Below, one piece after another: positions 299 to 26,369 of a stretch of 32,000 nucleotides of DNA. The notes under the pieces were generated by a model. It was not told the DNA's origin, ran no database searches, and saw nothing but the letters and a program-made list of their open reading frames with translations. Where the stretch lies: the NCBI GenBank assembly GCA_001430755.1, contig CP013062.1, positions 300,001 to 332,000 of the forward strand. Direction: 5' to 3'. Each line of letters opens with the position of its first letter. Within the stretch, counting starts at the first letter, position 1. This stretch comes from Candidatus Peribacter riflensis. Its GTDB lineage: Bacteria; Patescibacteriota; Gracilibacteria; Peribacterales; Peribacteraceae. A program made the translations under genes and the position numbers.

Positions 299-670
299 TT
301 ACACGAGGTATTTCTCCGCAATATTCCAGATCTGATCATCATCCATGTCACTTTTGATGAGGTATTCATTCACATCAAAATCATTGCATTTGATGATATT
401 TTTCTTGTCACTCAGATTGGTGCAGACGACGACGGGAAATTTCAACTTCTTCTTTTTCCTGTGCTGCAGGACGGCGAACCCGTCGACATTCGGCATCAGC
501 AGATCCAAGAGGAGAAGATCGGGAGGATCCTGATCGATACTGTCGATTGCCTCCTGTCCGTCACGTGCAGTGCTCACACGAACGCCGTGCTTGGCGAGCA
601 GGCTGCGGATCATGCTCAGGAGGAATGCTTCATCCTCGGCAACGAGGACGTGTTTCTGTGGCTTGTCCAT
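299..670 (-). CDS. Single-domain CheY-like response regulator (receiver only)
   Basis: From the internal Met (cat at 668-670): MDKPQKHVLVAEDEAF...PDLLLLDLLMPNVDG...VVVCTNLS...YLIKS. The acidic pair, phospho-acceptor Asp, T/S and Lys positions are all present. The longer track ORF (to 769) adds an implausible N-terminus. Confidence 0.8.
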   Translation of the reverse strand: MDKPQKHVLVAEDEAFLLSMIRSLLAKHGVRVSTARDGQEAIDSIDQDPPDLLLLDLLMPNVDGFAVLQHRKKKKLKFPVVVCTNLSDKKNIIKCNDFDVNEYLIKSDMDDDQIWNIAEKYLV

Positions 671-728
671 AGGTGGGAGGAGAAAAGAAAAAAATGGAAA
701 GCGAGTCTGCTGTCTGTCGGTCGGTTCT

Positions 729-1091
729 CTAGCGCAGGTATCCTTCGATCGCGGGCCAGAGATCATCATCGTCCAGATCGTTCTTCACGAAGTAATTCTG
801 CGCCTGCATTTCCTTACACTTGTCCCGCGTTTCCTTGTCGCTGAGATTGGAGAGCACGATGACGGGGCACTCCAAGCTCTTTTCCCTGATGAACCTCATG
901 ACGCCGTGACCATCCAGCACCGGCATGAGGATATCGAGGAGAAGCAAATCCGGCACTTCCTTCTCCAGAGCCTCAACCGCCTCCTTCCCGTTATAGGTGA
1001 TCGTGACACGTATGTTGTATTTGCTCAGAACTTTTGCCATCAAATCGGCGAGAGCAGTGTCGTCTTCGGCGATGAGAACGTGTTTGCTCAT
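729..1091 (-). CDS. Single-domain CheY-like response regulator (receiver only)
   Basis: MSKHVLIAEDD...PDLLLLDILMPVLDG...VIVLSNLS...YFVKN. A complete receiver signature with no output domain. It lies 6 nt downstream of the kinase gene. Confidence 0.85.
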   Translation of the reverse strand: MSKHVLIAEDDTALADLMAKVLSKYNIRVTITYNGKEAVEALEKEVPDLLLLDILMPVLDGHGVMRFIREKSLECPVIVLSNLSDKETRDKCKEMQAQNYFVKNDLDDDDLWPAIEGYLR

Positions 1092-1097
1092 AAAAAA

Positions 1098-2444
1098 TCA
1101 GGAAGGAAATAAAAGAGTGAACGTGGTGCCCTTGTTCTCCTGTGAGACAAAAGAGATCGTCCCGCCGATCAGACGTACGATGTTATAGACCATATACAAG
1201 CCGATGCCGGTGCCGGCTTCCACCGGGCTGGCAACATTCGATGCACGAAAGAATTTCTCCGGGATTCTCTTTTGCTCCTCCTGCGGAATACCGTAACCCG
1301 TATCCGCCACATCGATACGGATCGACTCTTTTTCTTTGGTAACACTCATGCGCACCTTCCCGCCTCTGGGCGTATACTTGAGGGCATTGCTGAGGAGGTT
1401 ATCCAGAATTTCGATGAGCAGCTGCTTATCCGTTCGTACCATGAGATCCTGCGGACACTGAAGGGCGAGTTCCAGCCCGTTCCTCTGCCGGTGGGCATCA
1501 TGCAGACGGGAGATCTTTTCCAGCTCCCTCTGCAAGACCACCTGTTCAAGTTCCGGTTCCATGCCGTCCTCTTCAAGATGGGAGATCATCAGCATGCGCC
1601 GGATGGTCGAGGCCATGTTCATGGACGTTTCGTGTGCGGTTTTCACCAGCTTCGCCTGATCTTCGGTGAGATTTTCCCGCTTCAGACTTGAGAGGACCCA
1701 TCGGATCGCCGTGAGAGGCGTCCTCAACTGATGGGATGCGATGGACATGAATTCCGATCTGGCTTTTTCGATTTCCTTTTCTTTGGTGATATCTCGAAAC
1801 ACCTTTACGGCGCCGATCAGATCTTTGCCGATGAAGATGGGCGCAACCGTTAGGGCAACCGGAAAAGACGTTCCATCTTTCCGCTTGTAGTACATCGTTG
1901 TGGTTGTGGTTGTGGTGGAACGATCCTTCAGGGTCTTGGTGATCAGGCGTTCCAATGCCGGAATGGTTTTGCCGGTCGAGTCCGACATCGGTATGACCTT
2001 GGAGAGCAACTTTCCCTGTGTCTCTCCCTCTTTCCAGCCCAATAATCTCTCACATGCCTTGTTCACGAGAAGAATCCGTCCGTTTTTATCCGTTGCCACC
2101 AGGCCTTCACCGATACTTGCCAGGATCGCCTCGTCTTTCGCTCTGACCTTTTCTAAGTCTTTGGTGCGCTCAAGAACTTTCTTCTCAAGCGTTTTTCGAG
2201 ATATCCTGAGTGCGTCCGCCGTTATAACCAGCTTGCGCCTGACCACCTCTTTTTCCTTGGCGGTTGCGGCGAGTTGCCTGGCTTTGAGACGCAGTTTCTT
2301 CGCCGTCACCACCAGCTTGCGCCTGACGACCTCTTTTTCCCTGGCGGTCACCACCAGCTTGCGCCTGACGACCTCTTTTTCCTTGGCCAAAAACTTGAGT
2401 TTGAGGGCTATGCCATTGGATGCGGAATGAATAGTTTTTCTCAT
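1098..2444 (-). CDS. Soluble sensor histidine kinase (repeat-rich coiled-coil N-terminus, PAS, HisKA, HATPase_c)
   Basis: H-box SIASHQLRTPLTAI; N/G boxes LSNALKYTP, DTGYGIP, GTGIGL; PAS-like block ILASIGEGLVATDKNGRILLVNKACERLLGW...FRDIT. No hydrophobic transmembrane segment is visible. Confidence 0.9.
   Translation of the reverse strand: MRKTIHSASNGIALKLKFLAKEKEVVRRKLVVTAREKEVVRRKLVVTAKKLRLKARQLAATAKEKEVVRRKLVITADALRISRKTLEKKVLERTKDLEKVRAKDEAILASIGEGLVATDKNGRILLVNKACERLLGWKEGETQGKLLSKVIPMSDSTGKTIPALERLITKTLKDRSTTTTTTTMYYKRKDGTSFPVALTVAPIFIGKDLIGAVKVFRDITKEKEIEKARSEFMSIASHQLRTPLTAIRWVLSSLKRENLTEDQAKLVKTAHETSMNMASTIRRMLMISHLEEDGMEPELEQVVLQRELEKISRLHDAHRQRNGLELALQCPQDLMVRTDKQLLIEILDNLLSNALKYTPRGGKVRMSVTKEKESIRIDVADTGYGIPQEEQKRIPEKFFRASNVASPVEAGTGIGLYMVYNIVRLIGGTISFVSQENKGTTFTLLFPS
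2221..2388 (-). repeat. 42-bp in-frame direct repeats inside the kinase gene (14-aa unit EKEVVRRKLVVTAx)
   Basis: gtcaccaccagcttgcgcctgacgacctctttttcc(c/t)tggc(g/c) occurs at 2305-2346 and 2347-2388 in tandem. A diverged third copy is at 2221-2262. Confidence 0.85.
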
Positions 2445-2505
2445 AAGTGTTCAGGACCGATGGAGAGGGTTATTTGCATGAGTGTGAATGGTCAATGTAC
2501 ACGTT

Positions 2506-2514
2506 TTTGTAGCA
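2506..2514 (-). promoter_or_regulatory. Candidate extended -10 (TGCTACAAA on the minus strand) for the kinase/regulator operon
   Basis: The reverse complement of tttgtagca reads TGcTACAAA, about 60 nt upstream of ATG 2444. It shares the TGCTAnAA core seen upstream of several other genes here. Confidence 0.25.
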
Positions 2515-2533
2515 TGTGACCAACTCTTCATCT

Positions 2534-2914
2534 TCAGGACGGTCTTGCCCCTTCAATAGTGCGCAACTTCCCTTCGAGAGCGGTAATCTTGGTCTGCAGT
2601 TGCTCCTTGGCCACCTCCCGATGCCTGATCTCTGCGATGTAATCATCCCGGATTCCTTTTGACAAATCGACCAGCTCTTCACCCTCGCGCCGCAATGCTT
2701 CCTGAAACTTACGCTCCTTCTCGGCATTCGCTCCCATTTGCTGTGCCTTCTCCCTCTCCAGTGTCGCCAGATTGCTCGTCTCGGTGCGCTTTTCGGCGTC
2801 CCGACGATCCTTTTTCGTTTTCATGCCCGTTACCCTATTCCGGTTGAGGCGTTCTTCGTCTCCGACGATCTTGGTGATGCGTTCCTGCAGTGGCTGGATG
2901 GTATCTTCGCTCAT
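2534..2914 (-). CDS. Hypothetical charged coiled-coil protein
   Basis: 126-aa ORF rich in E/K/R heptad-like sequence. Its ATG overlaps the stop of the upstream gene (2911-2914). I recognise no family. Confidence 0.55.
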   Translation of the reverse strand: MSEDTIQPLQERITKIVGDEERLNRNRVTGMKTKKDRRDAEKRTETSNLATLEREKAQQMGANAEKERKFQEALRREGEELVDLSKGIRDDYIAEIRHREVAKEQLQTKITALEGKLRTIEGARPS

Positions 2915-3192
2915 GTTTTGGAGAGGGAAGGAATGATCTTTGCCTCACCTTCCATGTGGGCGAGGCGCGTGTAGTAATCAGGGATCTCGCGCAGGTGGGC
3001 AAGAGCGATTTTGCCCGTCATGAGGGCATCATCGTTGGTCACGTTCGTCTGCACATCACGCTTGCCGTGCTCAAGCTCGATGTCCATTCCCATACGGAAT
3101 TGCTCGAGATCGAAATGGACATCGCTCCAGAAGATATCCAGTTTCAGAGCGGTATCCTGTGCCTGTTCTGTAGTGAAGTGCTGTGCGGTCAT
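2911..3192 (-). CDS. Small conserved protein, DUF5661-like
   Basis: From the Met at 3190-3192: MTAQHFTTEQAQDTALKLDIFWSDVHFDLEQFRMGMDIELEHGKRDVQTNVTNDDALMTGKIALAHLREIPDYYTRLAHME. The ELEHG...TNVTNDD...KIALAHL.E.PDYYTRL pattern matches my recollection of that family. Confidence 0.55.
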   Translation of the reverse strand: MTAQHFTTEQAQDTALKLDIFWSDVHFDLEQFRMGMDIELEHGKRDVQTNVTNDDALMTGKIALAHLREIPDYYTRLAHMEGEAKIIPSLSKT

Positions 3193-3233
3193 AGGATGGG
3201 TGGGTGAAGACAAGGATAGGATTGAAAGAGGCC

Positions 3234-3476
3234 TCACGCGTGTTTCAGCGTGCGCAGCGCGGCGATGAGTACGATGGCTCCGATGACCGCCATCACGATG
3301 GCACCGAGAGTCCCGTACGCGGTGATGCCGAGCAAGCGAAAGAGGAGACCGCCGATGAGTGAGCCGACAATGCCGACGACGATGTCACCGATGATGCCGT
3401 ATCCGCCACCGCCCATGATTTGCCCGGCGAGCCAGCCGGCGATGAGGCCGATGAGGAGAAACCAGATAATATCCAT
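3234..3476 (-). CDS. GlsB/YeaQ/YmgE-family small membrane protein (transglycosylase-associated)
   Basis: 80 aa, glycine-zipper-rich: FLLIGLIAGWLAGQIMGGGGYGIIGDIVVGIVGSLIGGLLF. This is typical of the family. Confidence 0.8.
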   Translation of the reverse strand: MDIIWFLLIGLIAGWLAGQIMGGGGYGIIGDIVVGIVGSLIGGLLFRLLGITAYGTLGAIVMAVIGAIVLIAALRTLKHA

Positions 3477-3505
3477 AGTGAATGGGGGGAAGAACTGAAA
3501 AGTGA

Positions 3506-4207
3506 TTAACGGAGATTGCTGATGGTCGCGCTCGTTTTATTCCTCTCGCTCACTTTTAGGCGATACACGATTTCCGCCATTTCTCCGCGGGTCATCGTTT
3601 GATCAAAACGCGTGATACTGACGGGGATGGCACGCAGATCGGAGAGACGCTGCACGTAGGGGCGATACCAGAATTCTCCGGTGTCCTTTGCTTCGATACT
3701 CAGACTGAAGACATTGCAGATGATCTTGGCTGCCTCTACGAAGTTGATGGAATTTGCGGGGCCGTATGTGCCGTTCGGATAGCCATCGATGATGGCATTC
3801 ATTTTGGCGAAACAGACATCTGTGGCGTACCAGGAATCTCTGGCAACATCAGAGAAGAAAACGGTGTTTACGCCTGTCGGGACATTTGCTCTGAGACAGT
3901 CGCTCATGTTGTTCGTATCCACAATGAAGGGATTGACAACAAAGTGCACAAATTCCGCTCGATTGATGCGCGTCGCAGGCCTGAACGTTCCATCCAGGTA
4001 TCCCTTGAGCACATTCTGCGTGCGGAGATATTCAATGCTTTGATAGTACGTACTGTTGACGGGGACATCGGTGAATGGATTTTCCGAAAACGCCGTATCC
4101 TGCTGTGCAAGTGCAGTGCCGCCAAAGAACAGGAAGCCGATGAGGAGAAACCAGGTGAGTACCATGGAATGATGGGTGAAGGGGAAAATAAACAGTGATG
4201 AGCGCAT
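3506..4207 (-). CDS. Secreted protein with three S-layer homology (SLH) domains
   Basis: Three SLH-like blocks: FTDVPVNSTYYQSIEYL...RPATRINRAEFV; FSDVARDSWYATDV...GPANSINFVEAAKI; ...WYRPYVQRL...MTRGEMAEIVYRL. The N-terminus is hydrophobic. The start is uncertain (4207 or 4165). Confidence 0.75.
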   Translation of the reverse strand: MRSSLFIFPFTHHSMVLTWFLLIGFLFFGGTALAQQDTAFSENPFTDVPVNSTYYQSIEYLRTQNVLKGYLDGTFRPATRINRAEFVHFVVNPFIVDTNNMSDCLRANVPTGVNTVFFSDVARDSWYATDVCFAKMNAIIDGYPNGTYGPANSINFVEAAKIICNVFSLSIEAKDTGEFWYRPYVQRLSDLRAIPVSITRFDQTMTRGEMAEIVYRLKVSERNKTSATISNLR

Positions 4208-4256: not shown

Positions 4257-4820
4257 CTAAAGAGCTCTCAGCAGGTTCAGCGCGTTTCGCTCTTCGACTG
4301 CGACAATGATTGAACGACGGGTGGGTGCGCTTCCAACATAGGAGCGGGAATACCCATTGCTTGCAAAGGCTACGGTTGCCGCATCGATGAATGTCGCTGC
4401 ACTGGTATTGACAGTAATCTTTGGGAAGTCTGGGGAGTAGATCGTCTGATCCATGGTGGACCGGGCGGGATGCGTTGAGGAATTGAATCGCGCGAGATCG
4501 ACCGGATTGAAAAATAGTTGCCGTTCCAACATCCTCAAGTTAGAAACGAGGAGACGATGCGCATTCTTGTATTCCGGAGAGCCGATCTCCAGAGTGTCGA
4601 TGAGATGCATCTGCAGATTCGCCGCCCGGACCTCCTGCATGAGTGTCGGATAGAGCGGTGAGGGGATAGCGGGAGCATCCATAAATATCGCCTTTGGTTG
4701 CTCCAGAAAACCGTCTTCCGGCTGCACCGCCGTGTTGGTTTGAGCGAGTGCCGAGGAAGTCATAGTGCCGAGAAAGAGGAGTGTGATTGGCAGGCCGATG
4801 GTGAAGATACGGTTGCTCAT
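4257..4820 (-). CDS. Secreted hypothetical protein
   Basis: The start at cat 4818-4820 gives the signal-peptide-like MSNRIFTIGLPITLLFLGTMTSSALAQ. The rest of the track ORF (to 5117) runs through the conserved non-coding element and is not credible as coding. Confidence 0.6.
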   Translation of the reverse strand: MSNRIFTIGLPITLLFLGTMTSSALAQTNTAVQPEDGFLEQPKAIFMDAPAIPSPLYPTLMQEVRAANLQMHLIDTLEIGSPEYKNAHRLLVSNLRMLERQLFFNPVDLARFNSSTHPARSTMDQTIYSPDFPKITVNTSAATFIDAATVAFASNGYSRSYVGSAPTRRSIIVAVEERNALNLLRAL

Positions 4821-5062
4821 GATGGGGAGGGGAAGGGGGGGAGGGGATGAAACGTGCCAATGACGACGGATGGGGCAGAAAGAACGAGTTACGTTCGATA
4901 CATGGTCCTTCGTACCGCGGACTGAATGGCCCGGGAGCCAGGAAGACCCGTAAAGGTGCTCTGATGAATTGCGGGAAACCACGATTGCAGAACGCCGGAG
5001 AATCGCCGGGCAGGTCGGGGGGAGGGATAGTAAGAACGTGAGATATTCATAGGAAGGTGGGG

Positions 5063-5160
5063 GAAATGAACTTTCACAATAGATGCGTGCGACTTTTGCG
5101 CAAGCGTCTGCGCACACACGAAGTCGCCGGGTTTAGGCCATCTGGGTGCTCATCTGGACC
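5063..5160 (-). repeat. Leader element E1, copy A (98 nt)
   Basis: gaaatgaactttcacaatagatgcgtgcgacttttgcgcaag...gtcgccgg...ctcatctggacc. 41 of the first 42 nt are identical to copy C. A 24-nt block (gtctgcgcacacacgaagtcgccg) and ctcatctggacc are identical to copy B. Confidence 0.9.
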
Positions 5161-5368
5161 GCAGTCGATCCTTCCTCCTTTCAGTGGTCAGCCGAGAGTG
5201 GCCATGAGTGGTCTGAACTGTTCAGTGATGTCCGTATCCTGCAATCTGAATAAAGGAAGTGACGGGAGGCACCACGTGAGGAGGACGCACGGTCTTTCTG
5301 AAGTGCGGGAGAACGGTTCTTCACTATTTTCATCGTGGCAGTGGAATGGAGAGTGTTCTGGAGCTTCC

Positions 5369-5437
5369 ATAGTCCCTTTCATGGAGAAAGGGCACATCAG
5401 ACATATCTCATCGACAAAGCATGATGATGTTTCTTAG
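5369..5437 (-). repeat. Leader element E2, copy A
   Basis: atagtCCCTTTCatggaGAAAGGGcacatcagacatatctcatcgacaaagcatgatgatgtttcttagg aligns with 10461-10528 and 11626-11694. Confidence 0.8.
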
Positions 5438-5524
5438 GGATTGATCCTCCTCTTTGAGATGTCTCCAGTCGGCAATGATTTCTTTCTGTATGCGCGAAGG
5501 TGCCGTAGGAATCATTGCATGAAC

Positions 5525-5553
5525 GAGCCGGGTCGCTGTGGGCAACCCGGCTC
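5525..5553 (-). terminator. Hairpin downstream of the SLH/CHRD gene (candidate terminator)
   Basis: GAGCCGGGT-11 nt-ACCCGGCTC, a 9-bp perfect stem about 25 nt past the stop at 5579 on the minus strand. No strong U-tract follows. Confidence 0.4.
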
Positions 5554-5578
5554 TCCGGCCAGAATGATGTTGATGTCT

Positions 5579-7462
5579 TCAGCGCAGGAGCTGGCCACGG
5601 ATTTCGCCATCCGGATGTACCGATGAATGGACGTTCACGTAGAACCCACCATCAAAGAGCGTGCTACGCTCATCATTGGTGAGATTCGACCACAAGCCGA
5701 TTGCGCGCTTTCCGTTGAACGTGATCGTCGAGACCACCGGTCCGGTCTGCCCGGCAAGTGCCTGATGAAAATGGGCGGAAGTGATGGATCCACTCATGTT
5801 TCGGACGGTGATGTCGTAGTGAAGGCCGTCGTTCATCAAGACGAGGGAACCCGTTCCGCTTGCAGTTGTCGACACGGACGGTACCTCCTGGCCTCCGGTC
5901 ATGTTCGTGTGGAAATTCACCGTGCCTGCAGCGTAGACGAAGGAAGTGTCATCCGAGAAGATGACGTCGTTTGTTGCCTGCATGCCTCGAACATCCAGAG
6001 TGTAGGATTGTTGCGCCTGGAGAGCTTCTCCGAGAGAGAGTTCGACCATGCGATTGGTGAGGATCTGCGACGAAATGATAGGCAGGGTGTGTGTGCTGTC
6101 CGTGAGGACATACCGCGAAGATTCTTCTGCCCGCAACGAATCGAGATCCACATCAAAGCTGACGTTGATGCGGTTCGCCGTGATAGGCGTCACTGTTGTG
6201 ATATATCCCGTCTGTGCCGCTGTAAGGATCACAGTGGCACTCTCAGTGAAGTCTGTACCGGTTCGCGTGAGAAGATGCGTTGCCGTCACGCGATACGTGA
6301 TATTCGCGGTGATATCCGTGGCGAGCAGCAGCTCGATCGTGCGATTGTTGAGGATCGTCACGGTTTGAATGTTGATCTCTTCAACGCCGGAGGCTCTCGA
6401 CATCGTAAAGCGAGAGGCATCGGCCGCACGGACCGTGTCGAGATCACTATCGAATGCCAGGCGGATACGACGCGTCGTAAGTGCCGTAATAGTGGTGATA
6501 CGAGCTGTGGGAGCCGTGAAGCTCAGGCTTGCGTTATCCGAGAAGATTGTGCCGTCCTGTGCAAGAAGATCGCTGGCAGTGACGAGGTACAAGACTCCTG
6601 TCGCAAGCGTATTGGAGAGGCTGAGCTCGACCGTCTTACTGTCGATCAACGATGCAGAGGCAACGGTGATGCTGTGAGAAATGGAGTAACGAGCCGCATC
6701 CTCCGCACGGGCGGCGGCGAGGGCGCGATCAAACACGAGGCGGACCCGTGTGGGAGAAACGACGGATACGTCGGTGATATGTGCCGCCTGCTGACCGCAG
6801 TCCGTTCCATACTGGAGGTTTAAGGAGGCGCGATAGAACATGGTGACCATCTCCGCACGGTTCATGAATGCTGCGGGACGGACTCTCTCTGTTCCATTAT
6901 CGCCCTGAAGAACGCAGTGGTCGGCCGATGACTGAATGTTGGTGAAGTACCATTGGTTCTGCTGATTATCCGAGAATACCGGTGCTTTTCCCGACCGGTT
7001 GAGCGAGAATGCCCGCACGAGTAGAGATGCGGCCTCCGCACGGTTCACATTGCTGGCGGCACTCGCAGTGCAGGGACGTGACTGTTGATAGCAGTTGGCG
7101 TTGCCATGGACCCAGCCTGCGTCGGCGGCTGCTTCAAAGTACGGGAAGTACCATGCGCTTCGTGGCACGTCATTGAAGCTCGGTACGGTTGGGTAGAGCA
7201 GCGTTGTGCCATTCAGATTGACCAGGAGCTTCACAAGTTCCGCGCGGGTGGCCAAAGCCGCAGGACGTAACGTTGTCGTGGGATCGAGAGCGCCGGACTC
7301 TAAGAGCGCGGCAGCAGCGTCTTCATAGTAGGCCCCTGCAGGCACGTCGACGAAGGGTGTCTTCTGCGCGAAGACGGAAAGCGGCATGCCGGAACAGAAG
7401 AGGAGAACGCCTGTGATTGTGTAGATCCGCTGTGCGCGGAAGGGAGAGGGAAGGGAGAACAT
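5579..7462 (-). CDS. Cell-surface protein: signal peptide, 3 SLH domains, 3 Ig-like repeats of about 95 aa, C-terminal CHRD domain
   Basis: SLH blocks: FVDVPAGAYYEDAA..., FNDVPRSAWYFPYF..., FSDNQQNQWYFTNI.... Three paralogous repeats: ITDVSVVSPTRVRLVFDRAL..., ITTITALTTRRIRLAFDSDL..., ITTVTPITANRINVSFDVDL.... CHRD-like C-terminus: MTGGQEVPSVSTTASGTGSL...AHFHQALAGQTGPVV...FYVNVHS..HPDGEIRGQL. Confidence 0.85.
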   Translation of the reverse strand: MFSLPSPFRAQRIYTITGVLLFCSGMPLSVFAQKTPFVDVPAGAYYEDAAAALLESGALDPTTTLRPAALATRAELVKLLVNLNGTTLLYPTVPSFNDVPRSAWYFPYFEAAADAGWVHGNANCYQQSRPCTASAASNVNRAEAASLLVRAFSLNRSGKAPVFSDNQQNQWYFTNIQSSADHCVLQGDNGTERVRPAAFMNRAEMVTMFYRASLNLQYGTDCGQQAAHITDVSVVSPTRVRLVFDRALAAARAEDAARYSISHSITVASASLIDSKTVELSLSNTLATGVLYLVTASDLLAQDGTIFSDNASLSFTAPTARITTITALTTRRIRLAFDSDLDTVRAADASRFTMSRASGVEEINIQTVTILNNRTIELLLATDITANITYRVTATHLLTRTGTDFTESATVILTAAQTGYITTVTPITANRINVSFDVDLDSLRAEESSRYVLTDSTHTLPIISSQILTNRMVELSLGEALQAQQSYTLDVRGMQATNDVIFSDDTSFVYAAGTVNFHTNMTGGQEVPSVSTTASGTGSLVLMNDGLHYDITVRNMSGSITSAHFHQALAGQTGPVVSTITFNGKRAIGLWSNLTNDERSTLFDGGFYVNVHSSVHPDGEIRGQLLR

Positions 7463-7614
7463 GGGATGGGGGGGAAAAAGAGAGAAAAGCGCAGGGCGAT
7501 GCTGGTTCCGAGAGCATCACCCTCGCGCTCCTCGGAGGTGGAAGCCGCCCTGCAGAGGAATCCTCTATGCGGGGCCTTGCATAGGAAGGGGGGAATGAAA
7601 AAGAACAAGCGGTA

Positions 7615-7839
7615 TTACTGCCCTGAAGGATTGGAACTTGGCAGAGGGCCATTGATATTCAGATTCACCGAGGGGGCCTCAGTGGCATCCGCAAGAGGTC
7701 GATTATTGAATGGGAAGACCCGCATAACGTACAGCGCGATGCCCAGAACAACGAGAATGGCGACGATTGCAACGAGAGCGGTCAGTGAAGATGCAGTGCC
7801 GTTGTCATGCTGGACGTCGTGTTCGATGATGGTTGGCAT
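7615..7839 (-). CDS. Small single-pass membrane protein (hypothetical)
   Basis: 74-aa ORF with one clear transmembrane helix (LTALVAIVAILVVLGIALYVM). Same strand as, and directly downstream of, the DUF3494 gene. Confidence 0.35.
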   Translation of the reverse strand: MPTIIEHDVQHDNGTASSLTALVAIVAILVVLGIALYVMRVFPFNNRPLADATEAPSVNLNINGPLPSSNPSGQ

Positions 7840-7889
7840 AGAGAAGTGGGGAAAAGAAGAAGTAAGGAAGAAATAAAAGAGAAAAAAGC

Positions 7890-9332
7890 TTAGTTCGCCG
7901 GAACGGTGACAGTGTTGCTCTGCAGTGTTACTGCACCGATGCGAGCGAGCAGTCGGCCATCCACTTTGGCGCCTGTTTGAAGCGAGATGGACTGGTCGGC
8001 AAGAATCGTCCCTTTGAACGTTGCATTTGTTCCAAGGTTTGCCGAGGTACCCACCTGCCAGAAAATATTGGCTGCCTTCGCCCCGCCGATGAGTACGATC
8101 TGTCGCCCGGCTGACACACTCAATGTCGATGCCACCTGAAAGACAAACACGGCATTGGCGTTGCCCTTGGCATCCAGTGTCAGATCACCGGAAGAGATCT
8201 CCAGTGATGACGTAGATTTATATAGGCCCGGGCTCAAGGTCGATCCGCCCAGATTTCCCGCGACACTCACCGGATTCGTGGAACGTCCTGCAAGGTCATT
8301 GTAGGCAATGGTGAGTGCCACTTTTGCCTGTGATGCCAGAGTATCCGTCACATGGATCGCACCTCCGTTCACAATCCCCGGTGCGAAGCCGGTGACCGCA
8401 GATCCCGGGCTGACGCCCAAATTTCCCGTTACGGTCGTTGGACCGGTATTGGTTACCGTTGAACCGGCCAATACACCGAATGTCGATGCGGCTCCCAACG
8501 ACACAGAAGACTGATTGGCATGGAGTGAGGTGTTCGCTGAAGAAGAGGTGACGCCGCACGAGAAATTCGCATATTCACTATTTCCGTCCAGCGTGGTGTA
8601 GGCATAGCCGCCACAAGAACTTTTCCAGGTCAGAGCAGTACCCCTTGGTCCTTTCACACCGGCGACGCAGGTCCCGATCCCGCTGCAGCCGAATGCGAGA
8701 GGGCTGTCTGAAGCAGTGGCGGTATCGCACCTCTGCTCCGTCGTCGCGCCACTGAAGACGCATTTGACTTGTTCTGTAACAAAGGCAGAGGTGGTGGAAT
8801 TGACGCATGTTCCATTCACACATGTCTTGGTCGGGCACGGTGCCGCAAAACATGCAATTTGCGGGCAATCAGTGTCTGCTGTGCATCGGGTGGACGGCGT
8901 GCATTGGCGAGCCAATGCAGTGCAGGCGATCGTTCCCGTTGCCCTCCCGCAGTTGCTTACATCAACCGGCGTCTGTGATTGCCAGCCATTCGTGCAAGCG
9001 CCCCAGGCGCATTTCCACTTTGGAGTGCAGGGTGTCGGAGACGACGAAGAGAAGCTTGCCCTGCTTGTACTGCGAGAACTCGCATGTCCATTATTCAACG
9101 CAACTGCCTGTTGCACGCATGTGCGAAATCGCAGACGGATTGCATGCCGATCTTCTGAACCGAAATTCAAACCAAAGACGCCATTGTGGTTTCTCTGGCG
9201 CAAACACACTTGCACCTGTTCGCCTGTCGCCCCCATTCTCTGACCTTGGGCGGATGCAAGCGTGAGGCCCATGAGGGAGAGCGCGGATGCCGCGATGAGC
9301 GTTGTACCTATACTGAAGCGTAATCGTGTCAT
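7890..9332 (-). CDS. Secreted protein with a Cys-rich N-terminal region and a C-terminal DUF3494 (ice-binding-like) beta-helix domain
   Basis: Signal peptide MTRLRFSIGTTLIAASALSLMGLTLASAQG. C-terminal half: ASTFGVLAGSTVTNTGPTTVTGNLGVSPGSAVTGF...AANIFWQVGTSANLGTNATFKGTILA...GRLLA, matching the DUF3494 pattern. Confidence 0.8.
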   Translation of the reverse strand: MTRLRFSIGTTLIAASALSLMGLTLASAQGQRMGATGEQVQVCLRQRNHNGVFGLNFGSEDRHAIRLRFRTCVQQAVALNNGHASSRSTSRASFSSSSPTPCTPKWKCAWGACTNGWQSQTPVDVSNCGRATGTIACTALARQCTPSTRCTADTDCPQIACFAAPCPTKTCVNGTCVNSTTSAFVTEQVKCVFSGATTEQRCDTATASDSPLAFGCSGIGTCVAGVKGPRGTALTWKSSCGGYAYTTLDGNSEYANFSCGVTSSSANTSLHANQSSVSLGAASTFGVLAGSTVTNTGPTTVTGNLGVSPGSAVTGFAPGIVNGGAIHVTDTLASQAKVALTIAYNDLAGRSTNPVSVAGNLGGSTLSPGLYKSTSSLEISSGDLTLDAKGNANAVFVFQVASTLSVSAGRQIVLIGGAKAANIFWQVGTSANLGTNATFKGTILADQSISLQTGAKVDGRLLARIGAVTLQSNTVTVPAN

Positions 9333-9350
9333 ACAAAATTGGGGGGGAAA

Positions 9351-9443
9351 GAAATGTCACAATGGTCGCGTGTCATTTTTGTGCAAGTGTCTGCGCACAC
9401 ACGAAGTCGCCGTGATGAAACCCTCCCGACACTCATCTGGACC
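9351..9443 (-). repeat. Leader element E1, copy B (93 nt)
   Basis: gaaatgtcacaatgg...gtctgcgcacacacgaagtcgccg...ctcatctggacc. It ends 18 nt upstream of ATG 9332 of the DUF3494 gene. Confidence 0.85.
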
Positions 9444-9548
9444 GGCCTTCGCCCGAAACCATGAGGAGCAATGAATTTGCTGTTCGTTATTGCTTTATGG
9501 AGGGGAGGCTACGGCCGGCAGGCCACTCTTCCTGCAAGACGAGATCGT

Positions 9549-10424
9549 TCAGGCAGGCAGTGCGGCTGCGCTGGCCGGCTTTTCCACTTTAGGCATCCAG
9601 CTGGTCAGAAAATCCATGGGCATGAGATCAATGATCTTTCGTGCCTGAAGTTCAGGTTCGAGGAATCTGTTGTTGTACTTCCACTCCATCTCTTTGAGGT
9701 AATACCCCGTATTCCGTTTCCAGATGCCATGGTGGCTGCGTACGCGCTCCCGGATCCATGTCCACAGTTGCTCCGTACCATCTTTCCCCTTTTCATCCTT
9801 CGTGAAACGGTGGAACTTGCCGCAGCAAATGAAACCGGCATAGCCCTCGTGGCGGCCAGCCGTTTTCTCTTTGGAGCCAAACATATGAAAGTGAAACACC
9901 GCTTCATCGTCTTTGAGCGGGTCAATGGTGACTTTGCCGCTCTCGTGCAACTGCACGCCGAATACCGGCGGCTTTCCCTTCTCATCACCGGAACGGATTT
10001 TACTATTGCACCATCTGCACCGGGATTTGCCGTGCACGACCTGTACGTCTCCTCCATGAGAAGAGAGGAGCTGGATTTTTTCCTGTGGCAGACTCTTTTC
10101 GACCAGAAGCTTGCGAAAGTGATCGTAGTAGGCAGCAACCAGCTTATAGCGATGATGCGTAATCTGCGACGTCCGGTGTGCCGAAAAATCGAGGCAGAAA
10201 CAGAGGAGGATCTCGGCACACTGCTGCAGCTTGTTGATTGCTGTCACTTTGTGGATACGAAACTTCTTGCCGCACGTGGTGCACTTTCTGCGTCCGTCCC
10301 CCAGGGTATTCAGTTTCGTTCGAATCCCGCAATAAGGGCAAAGGAGGTGACGCGAGGTATCACTTTGGGTTGGACGCACTTTGTCCCTGAGGTGCGGTAG
10401 GAGAGAATCCGCGTTAATAATCAT
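9549..10424 (-). CDS. IS1595-family (ISXO2-like) transposase-like protein; the catalytic triad may be degenerate
   Basis: N-terminal zinc ribbon CPYCG...CTTCGKKF. C-terminal block ...EQLWTWIRERVRSHHGIWKRNTGYYLKEMEWKYNNR matches the N.iEgfWs.lKr....hGv.....yl.E..frYNnR signature. Where family members have vEiDEty, this protein has VQVVHGK. Confidence 0.65.
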   Translation of the reverse strand: MIINADSLLPHLRDKVRPTQSDTSRHLLCPYCGIRTKLNTLGDGRRKCTTCGKKFRIHKVTAINKLQQCAEILLCFCLDFSAHRTSQITHHRYKLVAAYYDHFRKLLVEKSLPQEKIQLLSSHGGDVQVVHGKSRCRWCNSKIRSGDEKGKPPVFGVQLHESGKVTIDPLKDDEAVFHFHMFGSKEKTAGRHEGYAGFICCGKFHRFTKDEKGKDGTEQLWTWIRERVRSHHGIWKRNTGYYLKEMEWKYNNRFLEPELQARKIIDLMPMDFLTSWMPKVEKPASAAALPA

Positions 10425-10460
10425 CGTAGGGGCGGAAGAGGAACCCTTTGAACGATCAGT

Positions 10461-10528
10461 ATAGTCCTTTTTCAGAAGAAAAGGCGCGAGATCGATATCT
10501 CATCGACATAATTTCATTATGTTGCTCA
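10461..10528 (-). repeat. Leader element E2, copy B (upstream of the transposase-like ORF)
   Basis: atagtCCTTTTTCagaaGAAAAGGcgcgagatcgatatctcatcgacataatttcattatgttgctcag. Confidence 0.8.
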
Positions 10529-10632
10529 GAAACTTTGCATCGGTCTCCAGATGAATCTCCTGTGCATCTGTGCATTTCTTTCTGGCCTCCACTGCGCTCA
10601 CTTTTTTGAAGAAGTCAGTCTCACATCATCTG

Positions 10633-11346
10633 TCAGCTCTGGATGAATACCGGAATCCCGATATCCGCCCATTCATAAATCTCATTCGCTTCATCAGGAA
10701 GAAAGCGCACGCATCCGTGAGAAACCGGTACGCCGATGTGACTCAGTGCTTCGCTCCAGAATCCGGAACTCTCTGCCGATACTCCCAAATAGGGAAGGCT
10801 GTGGAGTCCGAATGCACTGTTCTTCGTGAACGACATATATTTCGGCATGCGGTACGGAACTGCCTGACCGCTCACGCGCAGGTCCTCTTTCTTGTAGATC
10901 TGAAATTCCCCCCGTGGGGTCGGCGTGGCCGGAGCACCAGAGCTGATCTGGTACGTTTTCACGATGATCCCGTACTCGGTGAGGAATGCTTCCTGTGTTC
11001 CCAGATAAATCCAAATAGCCTTTGCCCCGGAGGCGACTGTTGGATCGAGGAGCCCCGTTGCGCCCGACTCCGTAGATTGCGTAACGGGAATGTCTGAGGA
11101 AGGCAGGAATGGCGTGTCTGCCCTTTGAGAACCTGTGCTGCCGGATTTCTTATTGATCCGCCGATTGAGCCTGCAAGAGATATCACAGGCATACGTCCGG
11201 GGAGTTGCGCGAGACGCCGCAGTTGCAACCCTTGTTTCGACGACGTGCCCCGCGTCCGTCTGTTGTTCCTTGGCGATCACCACTGCTGCGTATCCCGTGA
11301 GGAGGAGGGTGGTGATCGCGGCCAGTGCTGTTTTGAGATGTATCAT
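10633..11346 (-). CDS. L,D-transpeptidase (YkuD-fold) with signal peptide
   Basis: The start at cat 11344-11346 gives MIHLKTALAAITTLLLTGYAAVVIA. The catalytic block is ...FGLHSLPY...IGVPVSHGCVRFLPDEANEIYEW (the SHGC[VI]R motif). Confidence 0.85.
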   Translation of the reverse strand: MIHLKTALAAITTLLLTGYAAVVIAKEQQTDAGHVVETRVATAASRATPRTYACDISCRLNRRINKKSGSTGSQRADTPFLPSSDIPVTQSTESGATGLLDPTVASGAKAIWIYLGTQEAFLTEYGIIVKTYQISSGAPATPTPRGEFQIYKKEDLRVSGQAVPYRMPKYMSFTKNSAFGLHSLPYLGVSAESSGFWSEALSHIGVPVSHGCVRFLPDEANEIYEWADIGIPVFIQS

Positions 11347-11370
11347 GGCGCTCAACTGTCGGTGATTAAA

Positions 11371-11468
11371 GAAATGAACTTTCACAATAGATGTGTGCGA
11401 CTTTTGCGCAAGAGCAAGCGCATACACAGAGTCGCCAGTGTCGGCCTCTCTCGGCGCTTATCTGGACT
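11371..11468 (-). repeat. Leader element E1, copy C (98 nt)
   Basis: gaaatgaactttcacaatagatgtgtgcgacttttgcgcaag...gtcgccag...cttatctggact. It ends 24 nt upstream of ATG 11346. Confidence 0.9.
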
Positions 11469-11625
11469 GCGTGTGTATTGTTTCGTTCGTGTACTCACGC
11501 TGAGACGAAGAAAGCGGTGAGGAGTGGCGCTTGGGATCGGACGCGTTTCTTCCTTAAGATGCGGCAGAAAAATAGACAGTGGTCATCACTGTGGAAGCGG
11601 GATCGAGCGATTGCCAGCTTTCGCA

Positions 11626-11694
11626 ATAGTCCTTTTTACAGAGAAAGGATGAGAAATACATATCCGGTCGACAATCATCCATGATGTTGCTTGG
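11626..11694 (-). repeat. Leader element E2, copy C
   Basis: atagtCCTTTttacagagAAAGGatgagaaatacatatccggtcgacaatcatccatgatgttgcttgg. Confidence 0.8.
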
Positions 11695-11782
11695 AGGTTT
11701 CTTTTTGGCCATGCACATGCGGCAATCTTTTGCAGAGGGTCATAATGAAGGACTCGTCAATGACACATTTTTGCGGCGATCG

Positions 11783-11788
11783 TATACT
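11783..11788 (+). promoter_or_regulatory. Candidate -10 box (TATACT) 8 nt before the zwf-gnd ATG, implying a leaderless or near-leaderless transcript
   Basis: TATACT-ggccgcct-ATG(11797). No Shine-Dalgarno sequence can fit in the gap. Confidence 0.3.
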
Positions 11789-11796
11789 GGCCGCCT

Positions 11797-14196
11797 ATGC
11801 AGGAGAATTCCCGCAACAATATCCCCACCATCATCGTGGTCCTGGGGGCAACCGGCGACCTCATGGCGAAGAAAATCGTCCCGTCCCTTCTGCACTTGTC
11901 TTCGGAGGACAAGATTCCCAACAAGTTCAGGGTGGTGGGCTTTGCGCGTCGCGATCTCACCGATGATGCCTTCCGGGAACATATTGCATCCATTGTCGCG
12001 GAGCACAAGGAGCAGCATCCCACGGACTTGGATCCGCAGGATTTCCTCAAGCTCTTCTCGTACCATTCCGGCGATTTTGAACAGGTCGCAGCCTATCGGG
12101 GGCTCCAATCCAAACTGCAGGCGATTGATGCCGAGTGGGGGGTGTGCACGAACAAGGTGTACTACCTTGCGGTCCCACCCGAAAAATTTGCGTCCATTTT
12201 TGAAGGTCTGGCCGCAACCGGGCTCAACAAGCCCTGCGGCGGTGCGTACGGCTGGACACGCATGCTCATCGAAAAGCCGTTCGGTCATGACGGCGCTTCA
12301 GCGGAGAAATTGGAGCAGCTGCTGTCACGCTACTTTCAGCAAGAACAGATTTATCGCATCGATCACTATCTGGCCAAGGAGCTCATTCAGGGCATTTCAC
12401 ATTTTCGTTTTTCGAATACGCTGCTCGAATCGTCGTGGAGCAACCGGGACATCGAGAAAATCGAAATCCGACTGCTCGAAAACATCGGCGTGGAAACGCG
12501 CGGCAGTTTTTACGAAAGTGTCGGAGCGCTGAAAGACGTAGGGGAGAACCATGTTCTCGAAATGCTGGCCGCGATCACCATGGATGCCCCGGTGAGCATG
12601 AGCATAGAAGAATTGCACGAGAAGCGTGCGGAGCTGATGAACACGCTCAAGCCGTGGACGCTCGAAGACATACGGCAGAACACCTACCGCGCTCAGCATG
12701 ACGGCTATCGGACGATCAAGGGTGTTCGCAGCGATTCCACTGCGGAAACGTATTTCAAGCTGAAGACCGAATTACTGCATCCCGCCTGGCAGGGCGTGCC
12801 CATCACCCTCGAGGCCGGCAAGCGCTGCCCCGCCTCCCGCAAAGAGATTGTGGTGACGTTCAGGCATCCGCATGCCTGCCTCATGTGTTCGCGGGATCAT
12901 CGCATCCAGAACCGGGTGGTGTTTGCGCTGGAGCCCGAAGAGAAAATTTCGATCCACTTCTGGACCAAGAAATCGGGCTACGAACACACGCTGGAGGAAC
13001 GCACGTTCGATTTCTTCGTCCACAAGAGAACATCCCGGGTGAAGTACGTCGAGGAATACAGCAAATTGATTTTCTCCTGCATTCTCGGCGACCAGACGGT
13101 GTTCTTAAGTCCCGATGAAGTCCGGGCGCAGTGGAGGTTCGCCGATCCGCTTGTGCGTGCCTGGAAGCAGAATGTCGTGCCGCTCCACCACTACAAGCCC
13201 GGCACCAGCGAAATATTCGAGGCATCTGCGCACATCGGCGCAGAGCCCAAGACAACGGCTCTCGTGAAAGAAATGGCCATTGTGGGCCTGGGTAAGATGG
13301 GGGCGAACATGAGCCGGCGCATGATGGAGCAGGGCTGGCGCGTGGTGGGGTTTAACCGGTCACCGGAAGTCACCAAGGCATTGGCAAAGGAGGGTCTGGT
13401 GCCCGCGATGACGCTTGCAGAGGCGGTGCAGAAACTTCCCGACAGAAAGATCATCTGGCTCATGGTTCCAGCCGGTCAGGCGGTGGATGACGTGCTGTTT
13501 GGCGCAGAAGGGCTTTCTCGTATCCTGAAGCGCGGAGACATCGTCATCGATGGCGGCAATTCCTACTACAAAGACACCGTTGCCCGTGCGAAAAAACTCC
13601 ACCGTCTCGGGATCAGGTTTCTGGATTGCGGAACGTCCGGCGGACCGAATGGTGCCCGCGGCGGCGCCTGTCTGATGATCGGCGGGGAGCGAAAAGATTT
13701 CGAAGACAGCGAGACGCTGTTCAAGGATTTCGCCTTGCCGAACGGCTATCAGTTTTTTCCCGGTCATGGTGCCGGCCACTTCGTGAAGATGGTTCACAAC
13801 GGCATCGAGTACGGCATGATGCAGGCCATCGGAGAGGGTTTCGCATTGATGAAGAAAGTTCCGTACAAGCTGGATCTGGCTCGCGTCGCGGACGTATACA
13901 ACCATGGCAGCGTCATCGAGTCGCGGCTGATCGGCTGGCTGGAGGAAGCACTCCAACTCTACGGCCAGGATCTGAAAGCGGTGTCCGGCTCGGTGCAGCA
14001 ATTGGGGGAGGGAGCATGGACGGTGAAGACGGCGAAGCAAATGAAGATTCCCGCGCAGGTGATCGAGAGCGCGCTCAATTTCCGCTACCACTCCGAGCAG
14101 CACCCCAGCTTCACGGGCAAGATCGTTTCCGCGCTCAGAAACCGCTTCGGCGGGCATGCCGTTTCGGCAAAGCCGAAGAAGAAGCGGGCCGGTTGA
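11797..14196 (+). CDS. zwf-gnd: Fusion protein: glucose-6-phosphate 1-dehydrogenase (aa 1 to about 490) plus short-form 6-phosphogluconate dehydrogenase (aa 493-799)
   Basis: Zwf motifs: VLGATGDLMAKK, LIEKPFGHD, YRIDHYLAKE. From the in-frame ATG at 13273: MAIVGLGKMGANM (Rossmann), GGNSYY, DCGTSGG, GHFVKMVHNGIEYG (Gnd/YqeC-type). There is no stop anywhere between the two halves. Confidence 0.85.
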   Translation: MQENSRNNIPTIIVVLGATGDLMAKKIVPSLLHLSSEDKIPNKFRVVGFARRDLTDDAFREHIASIVAEHKEQHPTDLDPQDFLKLFSYHSGDFEQVAAYRGLQSKLQAIDAEWGVCTNKVYYLAVPPEKFASIFEGLAATGLNKPCGGAYGWTRMLIEKPFGHDGASAEKLEQLLSRYFQQEQIYRIDHYLAKELIQGISHFRFSNTLLESSWSNRDIEKIEIRLLENIGVETRGSFYESVGALKDVGENHVLEMLAAITMDAPVSMSIEELHEKRAELMNTLKPWTLEDIRQNTYRAQHDGYRTIKGVRSDSTAETYFKLKTELLHPAWQGVPITLEAGKRCPASRKEIVVTFRHPHACLMCSRDHRIQNRVVFALEPEEKISIHFWTKKSGYEHTLEERTFDFFVHKRTSRVKYVEEYSKLIFSCILGDQTVFLSPDEVRAQWRFADPLVRAWKQNVVPLHHYKPGTSEIFEASAHIGAEPKTTALVKEMAIVGLGKMGANMSRRMMEQGWRVVGFNRSPEVTKALAKEGLVPAMTLAEAVQKLPDRKIIWLMVPAGQAVDDVLFGAEGLSRILKRGDIVIDGGNSYYKDTVARAKKLHRLGIRFLDCGTSGGPNGARGGACLMIGGERKDFEDSETLFKDFALPNGYQFFPGHGAGHFVKMVHNGIEYGMMQAIGEGFALMKKVPYKLDLARVADVYNHGSVIESRLIGWLEEALQLYGQDLKAVSGSVQQLGEGAWTVKTAKQMKIPAQVIESALNFRYHSEQHPSFTGKIVSALRNRFGGHAVSAKPKKKRAG

Positions 14197-14233: not shown

Positions 14234-15283
<1,050 letters not shown>

Positions 15284-17580: not shown

Positions 17581-17925
17581 TTAGAAAACGGAGATCACGA
17601 AGTTGACAATGGCGTTGGCAATGAGAATGAGGATGAGTCCCACGATGGTGTAGATGACGATCTTCTTGGCTCGTTCTTTTGCACTCTCCTCGCCAAATCC
17701 CACGATGAGCCAGATGCCTGCGATGATGATGACGATGACAGCGATGAGAGAGACGTATGTCAGGATCTGTTGGGTGATCGAGATGATGGCGCCTCGCAGA
17801 TCAACCCCGCCGCCTCCGCCGCCGACATTGATTTCGTTGGCATCGCCCAGTGGTCCCTGCGCGGCGGCCAGCCGCGGAAGTGTGAGGAGTGCGAGCGCGG
17901 TGATGCGGGACCGGAGAGTGGTCAT
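17581..17925 (-). CDS. Type IV secretion system pilin-like protein (VirB2/TrbC-like, CPR type), copy 2
   Basis: Signal peptide, then ...LRGAIISITQQILTYVSLIAVIVIIIAGIWLIVGFGEESAKERAKKIVIYTIVGLILILIANAIVNFV. This is the two-helix hairpin with the conserved G..E...K.AKK....(I/A)(V/I)GL pattern. Confidence 0.75.
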   Translation of the reverse strand: MTTLRSRITALALLTLPRLAAAQGPLGDANEINVGGGGGGVDLRGAIISITQQILTYVSLIAVIVIIIAGIWLIVGFGEESAKERAKKIVIYTIVGLILILIANAIVNFVISVF

Positions 17926-17930
17926 AGGGA

Positions 17931-18314
17931 TCAGCTGACGAGACCGATGAAGAACATAACGAGTGCTTTGGCGAGCAGGATGAGAACGAGGCCGATGGCG
18001 GTGTAGATCACGATCTTCTTCGCCGTTTCTTTCGCCGAATCACTGCCGAGGCTCAGGATCAGGTAGAGTCCTGCGATAATGATCATGACGACGGCAATGA
18101 GCGCGACGTACGTCAGGATCTTGTTCACGATATTGGCGATAGTCACGCGCAGGCTGCCTCCCTGAATGCCCTGCACACCCAGGCTTTCTGCTCCCGGCTG
18201 CAGACCCGGCCCGGTGTAGACCTGTGCGAGGGCGTGCCCTTCTGGCACGGCCATTTGGAGCATGGCGACGGTGCATCCGAGGGCGATGGCGCTGAGCCAG
18301 AGGCGGGTTCTCAT
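17931..18314 (-). CDS. Type IV secretion system pilin-like protein (VirB2/TrbC-like, CPR type), copy 1
   Basis: The start at cat 18312-18314 gives MRTRLWLSAIALGCTVAMLQMAVPEGHALAQ. Then ...LRVTIANIVNKILTYVALIAVVMIIIAGLYLILSLGSDSAKETAKKIVIYTAIGLVLILLAKALVMFF, paralogous to 17581-17925. Confidence 0.75.
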   Translation of the reverse strand: MRTRLWLSAIALGCTVAMLQMAVPEGHALAQVYTGPGLQPGAESLGVQGIQGGSLRVTIANIVNKILTYVALIAVVMIIIAGLYLILSLGSDSAKETAKKIVIYTAIGLVLILLAKALVMFFIGLVS

Positions 18315-18345
18315 AGGCGAAAAGGGAATCTGTCTTCTTCTTTGT

Positions 18346-18354
18346 ATGATAGCA
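18346..18354 (-). promoter_or_regulatory. Candidate extended -10 (TGCTATCAT on the minus strand) for the pilin-PKD operon
   Basis: The reverse complement of atgatagca is TGcTATCAT, about 30 nt upstream of ATG 18314. Confidence 0.35.
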
Positions 18355-19386: not shown

Positions 19387-19487
19387 GCCCTTTATAGAGC
19401 CAAAAAATAATATGACAATCATTCATTTCATTTGGTGAAGAAAGCATATTCTGCTGTCTGCTTGAAGGGGACGCAGCGCACTAAAAA

Positions 19488-19496
19488 TGCTAGAAT
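19488..19496 (+). promoter_or_regulatory. Candidate extended -10 (TGCTAGAAT) 8 nt before ATG 19505 (leaderless-type)
   Basis: TGcTAGAAT-gatgagaa-ATG, sitting in an AT-rich intergenic stretch. Confidence 0.4.
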
Positions 19497-19504
19497 GATG
19501 AGAA

Positions 19505-26363: not shown

Positions 26364-26369
26364 AAGGTG

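Follow-up and report, generated by a model that had tools for sequence, protein, structure and literature searches.

What is the noncoding element that stands three times, always in the same orientation, in front of different minus-strand genes of one gene cluster of Candidatus Peribacter riflensis, and what does it do there? The element, which we call E1, lies in a 32,000-nucleotide stretch of the genome (contig CP013062.1, positions 300,001 to 332,000 of the forward strand; this whole stretch is the window, and its own coordinates are used below). A first-pass annotation, made from the sequence alone, had proposed two readings of E1, a shared promoter and operator for envelope genes or a structured 5' leader RNA. 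That several genes may share one promoter/operator is a well-known principle; for the CPR (Patescibacteria), bacteria that are not growable alone, almost nothing is, to our knowledge, known on the control of transcription.

Copies of E1 in the window and the genes they precede

The three copies, with the positions of their blocks in plus-strand coordinates, and the genes around them are the following.

5063–5162, minus strand: E1 copy A, 100 nt; GTCCAGA at 5153–5159, GGCGACTTCGTGT at 5116–5128, -35-like TTGCGC at 5098–5103, -10-like TATTGT at 5076–5081, TTC and C-rich leader at 5063–5072
4889–5050, minus strand: conserved 53-codon small ORF (MNISRSYYP..SWFPAIHQ..SAVRRTM), first gene after copy A
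4257–4820, minus strand: 187-aa secreted protein to which sequence assigns no function, second gene of the copy-A operon
about 300–4165: the copy-A operon after the 187-aa gene, with SLH, Transgly_assoc, DUF5661, a 126-aa protein, a PAS histidine kinase and two receiver-only response regulators
9346–9445, minus strand: E1 copy B, 100 nt, which retains the ancestral upstream neighbour (intact p291 gene); GTCCAGA at 9436–9442, GGCGACTTCGTGT at 9399–9411, -35-like TTGCAC at 9381–9386, -10-like CATTGT at 9359–9364
7890–9332, minus strand: ice-binding-like (DUF3494) secreted protein, first gene after copy B
5579–7462: SLH/Big_5/CHRD protein, following the ice-binding-like gene and a 74-aa gene
9549–10424, minus strand: p291, zinc-ribbon protein with a remote relationship to IS1595/ISXO2 transposases; the gene is syntenic, present in one copy and highly conserved among Peribacteraceae
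11371–11470, minus strand: E1 copy C, 100 nt; GTCCAGA at 11461–11467, GGCGACTCTGTGT at 11424–11436, -35-like TTGCGC at 11406–11411, -10-like TATTGT at 11384–11389
10633–11346, minus strand: first gene after copy C, encoding a YkuD L,D-transpeptidase whose N-terminus has a membrane or signal segment

The three repeats are true copies of one conserved piece of regulatory DNA. All are direct copies, with ungapped identities to copy A of 76% (B) and 80% (C), and a nhmmer profile built from the three recognized them with E-values of 1e-34 to 1e-36; the next-best match in the window had E = 0.1, and no fourth copy was found there with this profile. Ungapped alignment and nhmmer thus confirmed the three same-orientation copies upstream of minus-strand genes that the first-pass annotation had described, with limits of 100 nt, and its finer details were recovered on reading the sequences: the identity of copies A and C at 41 of 42 nt, the 24-mer and the 12-mer common to A and B, the inter-block spacer of equal length and different sequence in each copy, and the gaps of 18 nt (B) and 24 nt (C) to the ATG. 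The promoter-like TTGC...ATTGT pattern that it had pointed out in the element was also found, TTGC-N19-ATTGT occurring three times in the window against 0.24 occurrences expected by chance. The 176-nt repeat D2, also present in the window, has its source in two tandem T4SS-pilin paralogues (17581–18425, minus strand).

Read on the minus strand, the order is copy C, YkuD, p291, copy B, the ice-binding-like gene, the 74-aa gene, the SLH/Big_5/CHRD gene, a 416-nt gap, copy A and the small ORF with the rest of its operon. Copies B and C do stand directly upstream of a signal-peptide gene, as had been claimed for each copy; copy A does not, since the small ORF has no signal peptide and the 187-aa secreted protein starts only at 4820, 243 nt further. 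The cluster has no gene for a DNA-binding regulator, and its response regulators consist of a receiver only. Three 48-nt repeats (2217–2390; 81–90% identical, with spacings of 84 and 42 nt) occur in the PAS histidine kinase gene, in the part that codes for the N-terminus.

The small ORF has exactly 53 codons in six orthologues, with 22, 23 and 34 variable columns at the three codon positions, and belongs to a small family of proteins of 50–114 aa. Its homologues follow E1 in the loci L039, L041, L042, L047 and L048 of related genomes, and it is the ancestral downstream partner of E1. It is unannotated and basic, with the motifs SWFPAIHQ and SAVRRTM. We rejected E1 as a coding sequence, that is, as an N-terminal extension of the small ORF or of YkuD: the frame to the ATG shifts between lineages, and the B and C copies carry stop codons; some gene callers nonetheless extend genes into E1, the small ORF sometimes among them. 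A conserved upstream mini-ORF starting from CCAGATGAG was discarded as well, as it showed no conservation.

Block structure and conservation of E1 among the Peribacteraceae

A pattern scan that covered one genome per species found the element in only one other genome, Ca. Peribacter sp. E14, with three syntenic copies. Two proteins served as anchors for further relatives, the CHRD protein and the 799-aa fusion of glucose-6-phosphate dehydrogenase (G6PD) and 6-phosphogluconate dehydrogenase (6PGD) encoded at 11797–14196 on the plus strand, a fusion that is widespread in CPR; this search added CG1_02_54_53 (CG1 below), in which all three copies are present, and a Logan contig that carries A and B. 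A skeleton pattern of invariant positions, scanned over JGI metagenomes, gave eight more loci, and p291 homologues, followed into more distant Peribacteraceae, led to copies in L047 and L048 and to a vestige in L049. About 20 distinct copies from about ten lineages were recovered in this way, and their alignment is almost gap-free.

In all genomes and metagenome contigs scanned, the copies are confined to the positions of A, B and C and to an ancestral position (X copies; see below). The core pattern CTTGC-N2-A-N15-YAKWGT matched E1 copies only across 49 loci, and the scan of the E14 MAG gave syntenic copies only, on which grounds a wider regulon was rejected. E1 is a local duplicated control region, not a genome-wide motif, and the expectation of a genome-wide regulon was not borne out. 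The opposite expectation, copies placed and oriented at random relative to genes, as in a plain dispersed repeat, was not borne out either. The existence of several copies with sharp boundaries and unrelated flanks might suggest a mobile or dispersed repeat (MITE, REP-like) that landed in intergenic regions by chance; nevertheless, every genome and metagenome contig recovered has it at the same few syntenic positions only, terminal inverted repeats are lacking, the orientation to the downstream ORF is constant, and a deletion within a duplicated p291 gene accounts for the 5' boundary of copies A and C. We regard this origin as extremely unlikely.

The consensus of the element is GTCCAGA-N24-GGCGACTTCGTGT-N11-CTTGCGCAA-N14-(T/C)ATTGTG, followed by TTC and a C-rich leader. 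Information content is concentrated in these four blocks; TTC comes after them, and then TTTCCCCC in the A, B and X copies. Between the blocks, the distant copies (L039, L041, L047, L048 and L049) are free in sequence and keep the length, the only indel of the whole element, 1 nt long and found in L047 and L049, falling between block two and block three. In each of the 20 copies, 16 bp separate the positions of TTGCGC and TATTGT, and C-TTG in the -35 hexamer as well as A2, G5 and T6 in the -10 hexamer are invariant or nearly so. TTG, A2 and T6 are the positions that matter most in a bacterial promoter; the invariant G5 is non-canonical. All recovered copies point at an ORF and end 10–40 nt before its ATG. 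The distance from the -10-like box to the ATG is 23–30 nt in all A, B and X copies, including those in front of later-acquired genes, and 26–46 nt in the C copies.

Between the window and CG1, E1 identity is 0.85 for copy A, 0.81 for B and 0.75 for C, while the identity of four-fold degenerate sites is about 60% in the YkuD, p291, p187 and SLH genes and reaches about 80% in those for the ice-binding and CHRD proteins. For A and B the pairwise conservation (0.81–0.85) is close to that of local synonymous sites (0.8), so that this comparison alone is no proof of constraint, and we set it aside as such because of the unusually high synonymous-site identity of the ice-binding/CHRD segment. That segment (5579–9332, against 7842–11884 of the CG1 locus, L035) has a synonymous identity of about 0.8, its flanking genes having about 0.6, which points to a recent exchange of the segment among lineages or to strong codon selection in highly expressed surface-protein genes.

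The same comparison would be expected if E1 were a functionless by-product of segmental duplication, with the genes using other signals, and the copies did come from a duplication of the p291 region. We find this quite improbable, since the A, B and C types predate the split of at least four to five species and have kept their blocks while spacers and flanks diverged, and since the distance to the ATG was maintained for newly acquired genes. E1 is, in addition, still recognizable where p291 is 74–78% and the CHRD protein about 50% identical (L047, L048), and a vestige persists at 46% p291 identity (L049). Constraint on E1 would be better argued from these features, old paralogues that keep their blocks, persistence at high divergence and the contrast between blocks and spacers, than from pairwise identity.

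E1 as a probable DNA control region and its candidate readers

E1 is best read as a cis-regulatory module of double-stranded DNA, not as an RNA. A search of the window against Rfam with cmscan at the gathering threshold returned a single match, a tRNA at 14886–14959, and at E <= 10 over positions 4800–11800 there was no match at E1; the first-pass annotation had likewise been able to match the element to no RNA family. Relative to shuffled sequences, the three copies had folding z-scores of -0.39, +1.10 and -0.24 when read on the minus strand; for the plus strand the values were -1.30, +1.49 and -0.44. The RNAalifold consensus energy weakened as copies were added (-17, -13 and -3.2 kcal/mol for 6, 11 and 20 copies), with essentially no compensatory changes in any of the three sets (both strands for the 6- and 11-copy sets).

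A hairpin had also been proposed, in which the inverted repeat GCGACTT/AAGTCGC flanks TGCGCA/TGCGCA. The inverted repeat is present in A and C and is not conserved in B or in more distant copies. Over the 20 copies, 74.2% of the cells of this hairpin are paired, against 73.0% in shuffles; an equally high score was reached by 58 of the 500 shuffles, and two pairs of the hairpin are disrupted, one in 10 and the other in 15 of the 20 copies. The structured leader is not supported, on three counts: no Rfam match, folds similar to those of shuffles and, in the covariation analysis that had been suggested for it, no covariation in 20 copies.

A more general form of this reading makes E1 a cis-acting RNA (structured leader, riboswitch-like sensor or processing/stabilizing site) transcribed from the p291 promoter or from a relic of it. 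It draws on the location of E1 in the 5' region of three operons, on the p291 upstream region kept at copies A and C, on the hairpin that can be drawn in these two and on the fact that E1 begins 0–16 nt past the p291 stop in relatives, which leaves no space for a separate upstream promoter. Besides the Rfam, folding and hairpin results, it has against it the decayed -10 hexamer of the relic p291 promoter (TATGGA, TCTGCG, TATTGA), and we hold it to be very doubtful. Co-transcription with p291 combined with an RNA-level role that requires no stable structure is possible, given that E1 lies within 16 nt of the p291 stop in most relatives.

We hypothesize that E1 is a stress- or envelope-responsive promoter with operator boxes, a reading to which we assign a probability of about 0.6. 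Read on the minus strand, the core promoter would be formed by the -35-like CTTGCGCAA, a 16-bp spacer and the -10-like (T/C)ATTGT, and we infer that transcription initiates there, with predicted starts near 5069, 9352 and 11377. Upstream of the core, GGCGACTTCGTGT (about -59 to -47, centred near -53) and GTCCAGA (about -90 to -84, centred near -87) would be probable protein-binding boxes, with about three helical turns between them. Downstream, a pyrimidine-rich leader (TTC..TTTCCCCC), about 20 nt long and bearing the C-rich motif described below, would end at the start codon. Three envelope/stress operons of one 10-kb cluster would in this manner be placed under one control region. The shared promoter/operator for envelope genes, the one of the two first readings that the evidence favours, is in this way partly supported, by the spaced blocks, the invariant hexamer positions, the near-constant distance from -10 to ATG and the envelope/stress type of the downstream genes, which include YkuD, SLH and Transgly_assoc genes and, behind the vestigial copy in L049, HSP20.

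The hexamers TTGCGC-N16-TATTGT match the sigma-70 consensus at 7 of 12 positions (TTGCGC against TTGACA at 3 of 6), and a simple sigma-70 promoter scan did not call the E1 site. Other promoters of the window are canonical (TTGACA-17-TATAAT of the gene ending at 26363, ATGACA-17-TATACT of G6PD and TGcTAGAAT before 19505), and the deviant hexamers of E1 therefore suggest a dedicated factor. Two other promoter classes were considered and rejected, sigma-54 (by inspection, TGCGCAG-N4-TTGC is without the essential GG) and a sigma-32-like promoter (CTTGAAA / CCCCATnT), the -10 part of which fails across copy types.

As to the canonical promoters, those at 26364–26433, 11760–11796 and 19470–19504 end 6–8 nt before the start codon (TTGACA-17-TATAAT-6-ATG, ATGACA-17-TATACT-8-ATG and TGcTAGAAT-8-ATG), an arrangement that would imply leaderless mRNAs for several housekeeping genes, from promoters abutting the start codons. 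A C-rich motif (TTCCCCC / CCCTCCCC) lies 8–15 nt before the ATG of many cluster genes and of genes of distant Peribacteraceae: we observed it before the starts at 3476, 4165, 4820, 5050, 7462, 9332 and 10424 of the window, and also at 8610, 8887 and 10001 of L037 and 315 of L038. No GGAGG-type Shine-Dalgarno sequence was present before 27 window genes inspected, and the C-rich motif in its place suggests a putative unusual translation-initiation signal. Elsewhere in the window, a 14-nt tandem array (GAAAAGGACTAAGG, 4 copies; 27782–27837) and, 48 nt away, its inverted complement (TCCTTAGTCCTTCG, 2.3 copies; 27886–27917) face each other. The arrangement runs from the upstream ORF's stop codon to a point 5 nt short of the YceG start and could form a long hairpin.

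The reader of E1 would most likely be an ECF sigma factor, or an activator acting with the housekeeping sigma factor. ECF sigma operons are usually autoregulated, transcribed from a promoter read by their own sigma factor, and ECF promoters commonly carry AAC (-35) and CGT (-10) motifs about 16–17 bp apart. In L047 and L048, an ECF sigma factor gene, whose product has 162 aa in L048, follows the small ORF in the operon headed by E1, and in L039 it is part of the same E1-headed operon, after the homologue of the 187-aa gene and a Transgly_assoc gene. E1 is the only conserved noncoding element before the ECF sigma operon in these three lineages, and this, taken together with the autoregulation of ECF operons, makes an ECF-dependent, or ECF-plus-housekeeping, promoter our leading sub-hypothesis. 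The small ORF product, encoded near or in the ECF sigma operon in these three relatives, may be a sigma-associated small protein.

In several respects E1 does resemble the autoregulated ECF promoters, such as those of sigma-W, sigma-M and sigma-X of Bacillus subtilis and of sigma-E of E. coli: it is highly conserved, noncanonical and, in L039, L047 and L048, located directly before an ECF operon, its spacer length is strictly fixed and, as in ECF envelope-stress regulons, it precedes genes for an L,D-transpeptidase, an SLH wall-anchored protein and a Transgly_assoc stress protein. Weighing against the sub-hypothesis, inspection of the alignment revealed no conserved AAC/CGT pair in E1, the nearest candidate being GCGACTT-N16/17-CTTGC, in which GCGACTT is only loosely like GGAACTT, and no ECF sigma gene occurs in the window, its cluster included, or in the CG1, E14 and L041 loci. 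Unlike an ECF promoter, E1 is conserved over about 100 bp and has two extra upstream boxes, far exceeding a sigma recognition site, and an anti-sigma partner is not evident, the sigma gene being preceded by a 53-aa basic protein instead.

Activator-dependent sigma-70 promoters (class I/II) offer the other comparison. E1 shares with them weak hexamers in which TTG, A2 and T6 are kept, the 16-bp spacer and conserved upstream boxes; it differs from them in that no candidate activator with a known DNA-binding domain is found nearby and in that its boxes are not obvious direct or inverted repeats of each other.

p291 and the origin of the three copies

The ancestral position of E1 is between the p291 gene and the 53-codon ORF. 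L039, L041, L047 and L048 have a single E1 copy between the p291 stop and the small ORF, and L041 has, in addition, a separate C-type copy before YkuD. Across relatives, E1 starts at -19 to +16 nt relative to the p291 stop codon, which it abuts or overlaps in at least nine lineages; in the window this distance is 103 nt. Both ancestral neighbours persist in the window, although at different copies, the small ORF downstream of copy A and p291 upstream of copy B. Upstream of A and C, we identified at the DNA level 200 nt that align with the 5' part of p291, from the region before the gene through the ATG to about codon 45, and both stretches were delimited by DNA alignment and tblastn.

5205–5420, minus strand: relic of a deleted p291 copy before copy A, which keeps about 45 codons from the ATG on, together with the region that precedes the gene
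11475–11680, minus strand: the corresponding p291 5' relic before copy C, in a more advanced state of decay

In several species, the relic before copy A has stayed open as an ORF of 50–66 codons. The p291 5' homology upstream of A and C indicates that p291 and E1 were duplicated together and that the extra p291 genes were internally deleted, and the clustering of A, B and C copies by type across species indicates that the duplications predate the split of at least four or five species. The triplication arose by segmental duplication and promoter capture: in the clade of the window, the p291 and E1 unit was duplicated, the extra p291 copies lost their middle by deletion, and the duplicated promoter-leader was fused before new genes, ice-binding/SLH-CHRD on the one hand and YkuD on the other.

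In L039 and L041, p291, E1 and the small ORF follow one another without the ice-binding/CHRD segment between them, and the L041 copy is B-like on its left side, yet lies upstream of the small ORF. These arrangements fit a gain or loss of the cassette through recombination between direct E1 repeats. As in known cases of promoter duplication and capture in surface-protein clusters, one promoter-leader unit appears to be reused before different surface-protein genes, and its direct repeats could mediate cassette loss; no evidence of inversion or phase variation was found, unlike in such clusters, and the E1 copies are old and stable across species.

The constant neighbour of E1 deserves attention in its own right. 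Within the p291 family, 23 of 45 members match the IS1595 zinc-ribbon model and 9 of 45 the ISXO2 DDE model, no Asp is invariant in the core, and p291, a conserved IS1595-like gene, is probably inactive. It is 70–78% identical in genomes in which the neighbouring S-layer-like protein is only 42–50% identical. p291 could be an E1-binding protein, and one may go further and consider E1, or its 5' boxes GTCCAGA and GGCGACT, as a former IS1595-type transposon end that the domesticated transposase p291 would still recognize, regulating the E1 promoters and with them a small stress/envelope regulon of the Peribacteraceae. Apart from the family matches and the lack of an invariant Asp, this proposal has in its favour that p291 is single-copy and far more conserved than its neighbours, that the p291 stop codon, where E1 lies in at least nine lineages, is the expected place of a right inverted repeat, and that the cluster encodes no other DNA-binding protein.

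Nevertheless, an inverted partner of the E1 5' end was found upstream of p291 in none of eight lineages, and a transposon end of this paired form was rejected. E1 lacks terminal inverted repeats, a target-site duplication was not observed, a PDB fold search of p291 was uninformative, and the adjacency of p291 and E1 may be mere compact gene order. The situation is thus like that of domesticated transposase regulators in that a conserved, single-copy and probably catalytically dead IS1595-like gene always adjoins E1, and unlike it in the missing inverted-repeat partner; binding by p291 is a lead only, and we judge the transposase-derived regulator to be an unlikely explanation. If it were true, a sigma-factor operon and, after the duplications, three surface-protein operons would be wired to one transposase-derived switch.

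Read as a probable stress- or envelope-responsive promoter with operator boxes, E1 belongs to a known kind of element, of which it is a lineage-specific case, and it adds no new RNA class. It gives, in a concrete and testable form, a control region of about 100 bp with four defined boxes, links three surface/cell-wall operons in one cluster, is associated with an ECF sigma factor and a conserved transposase-derived gene, and is a clear case of new genes recruited through a copied promoter-leader unit. Its value lies mainly in that the regulation of CPR bacteria is uncharted and in its possible tie to a sigma factor or to a domesticated transposase.
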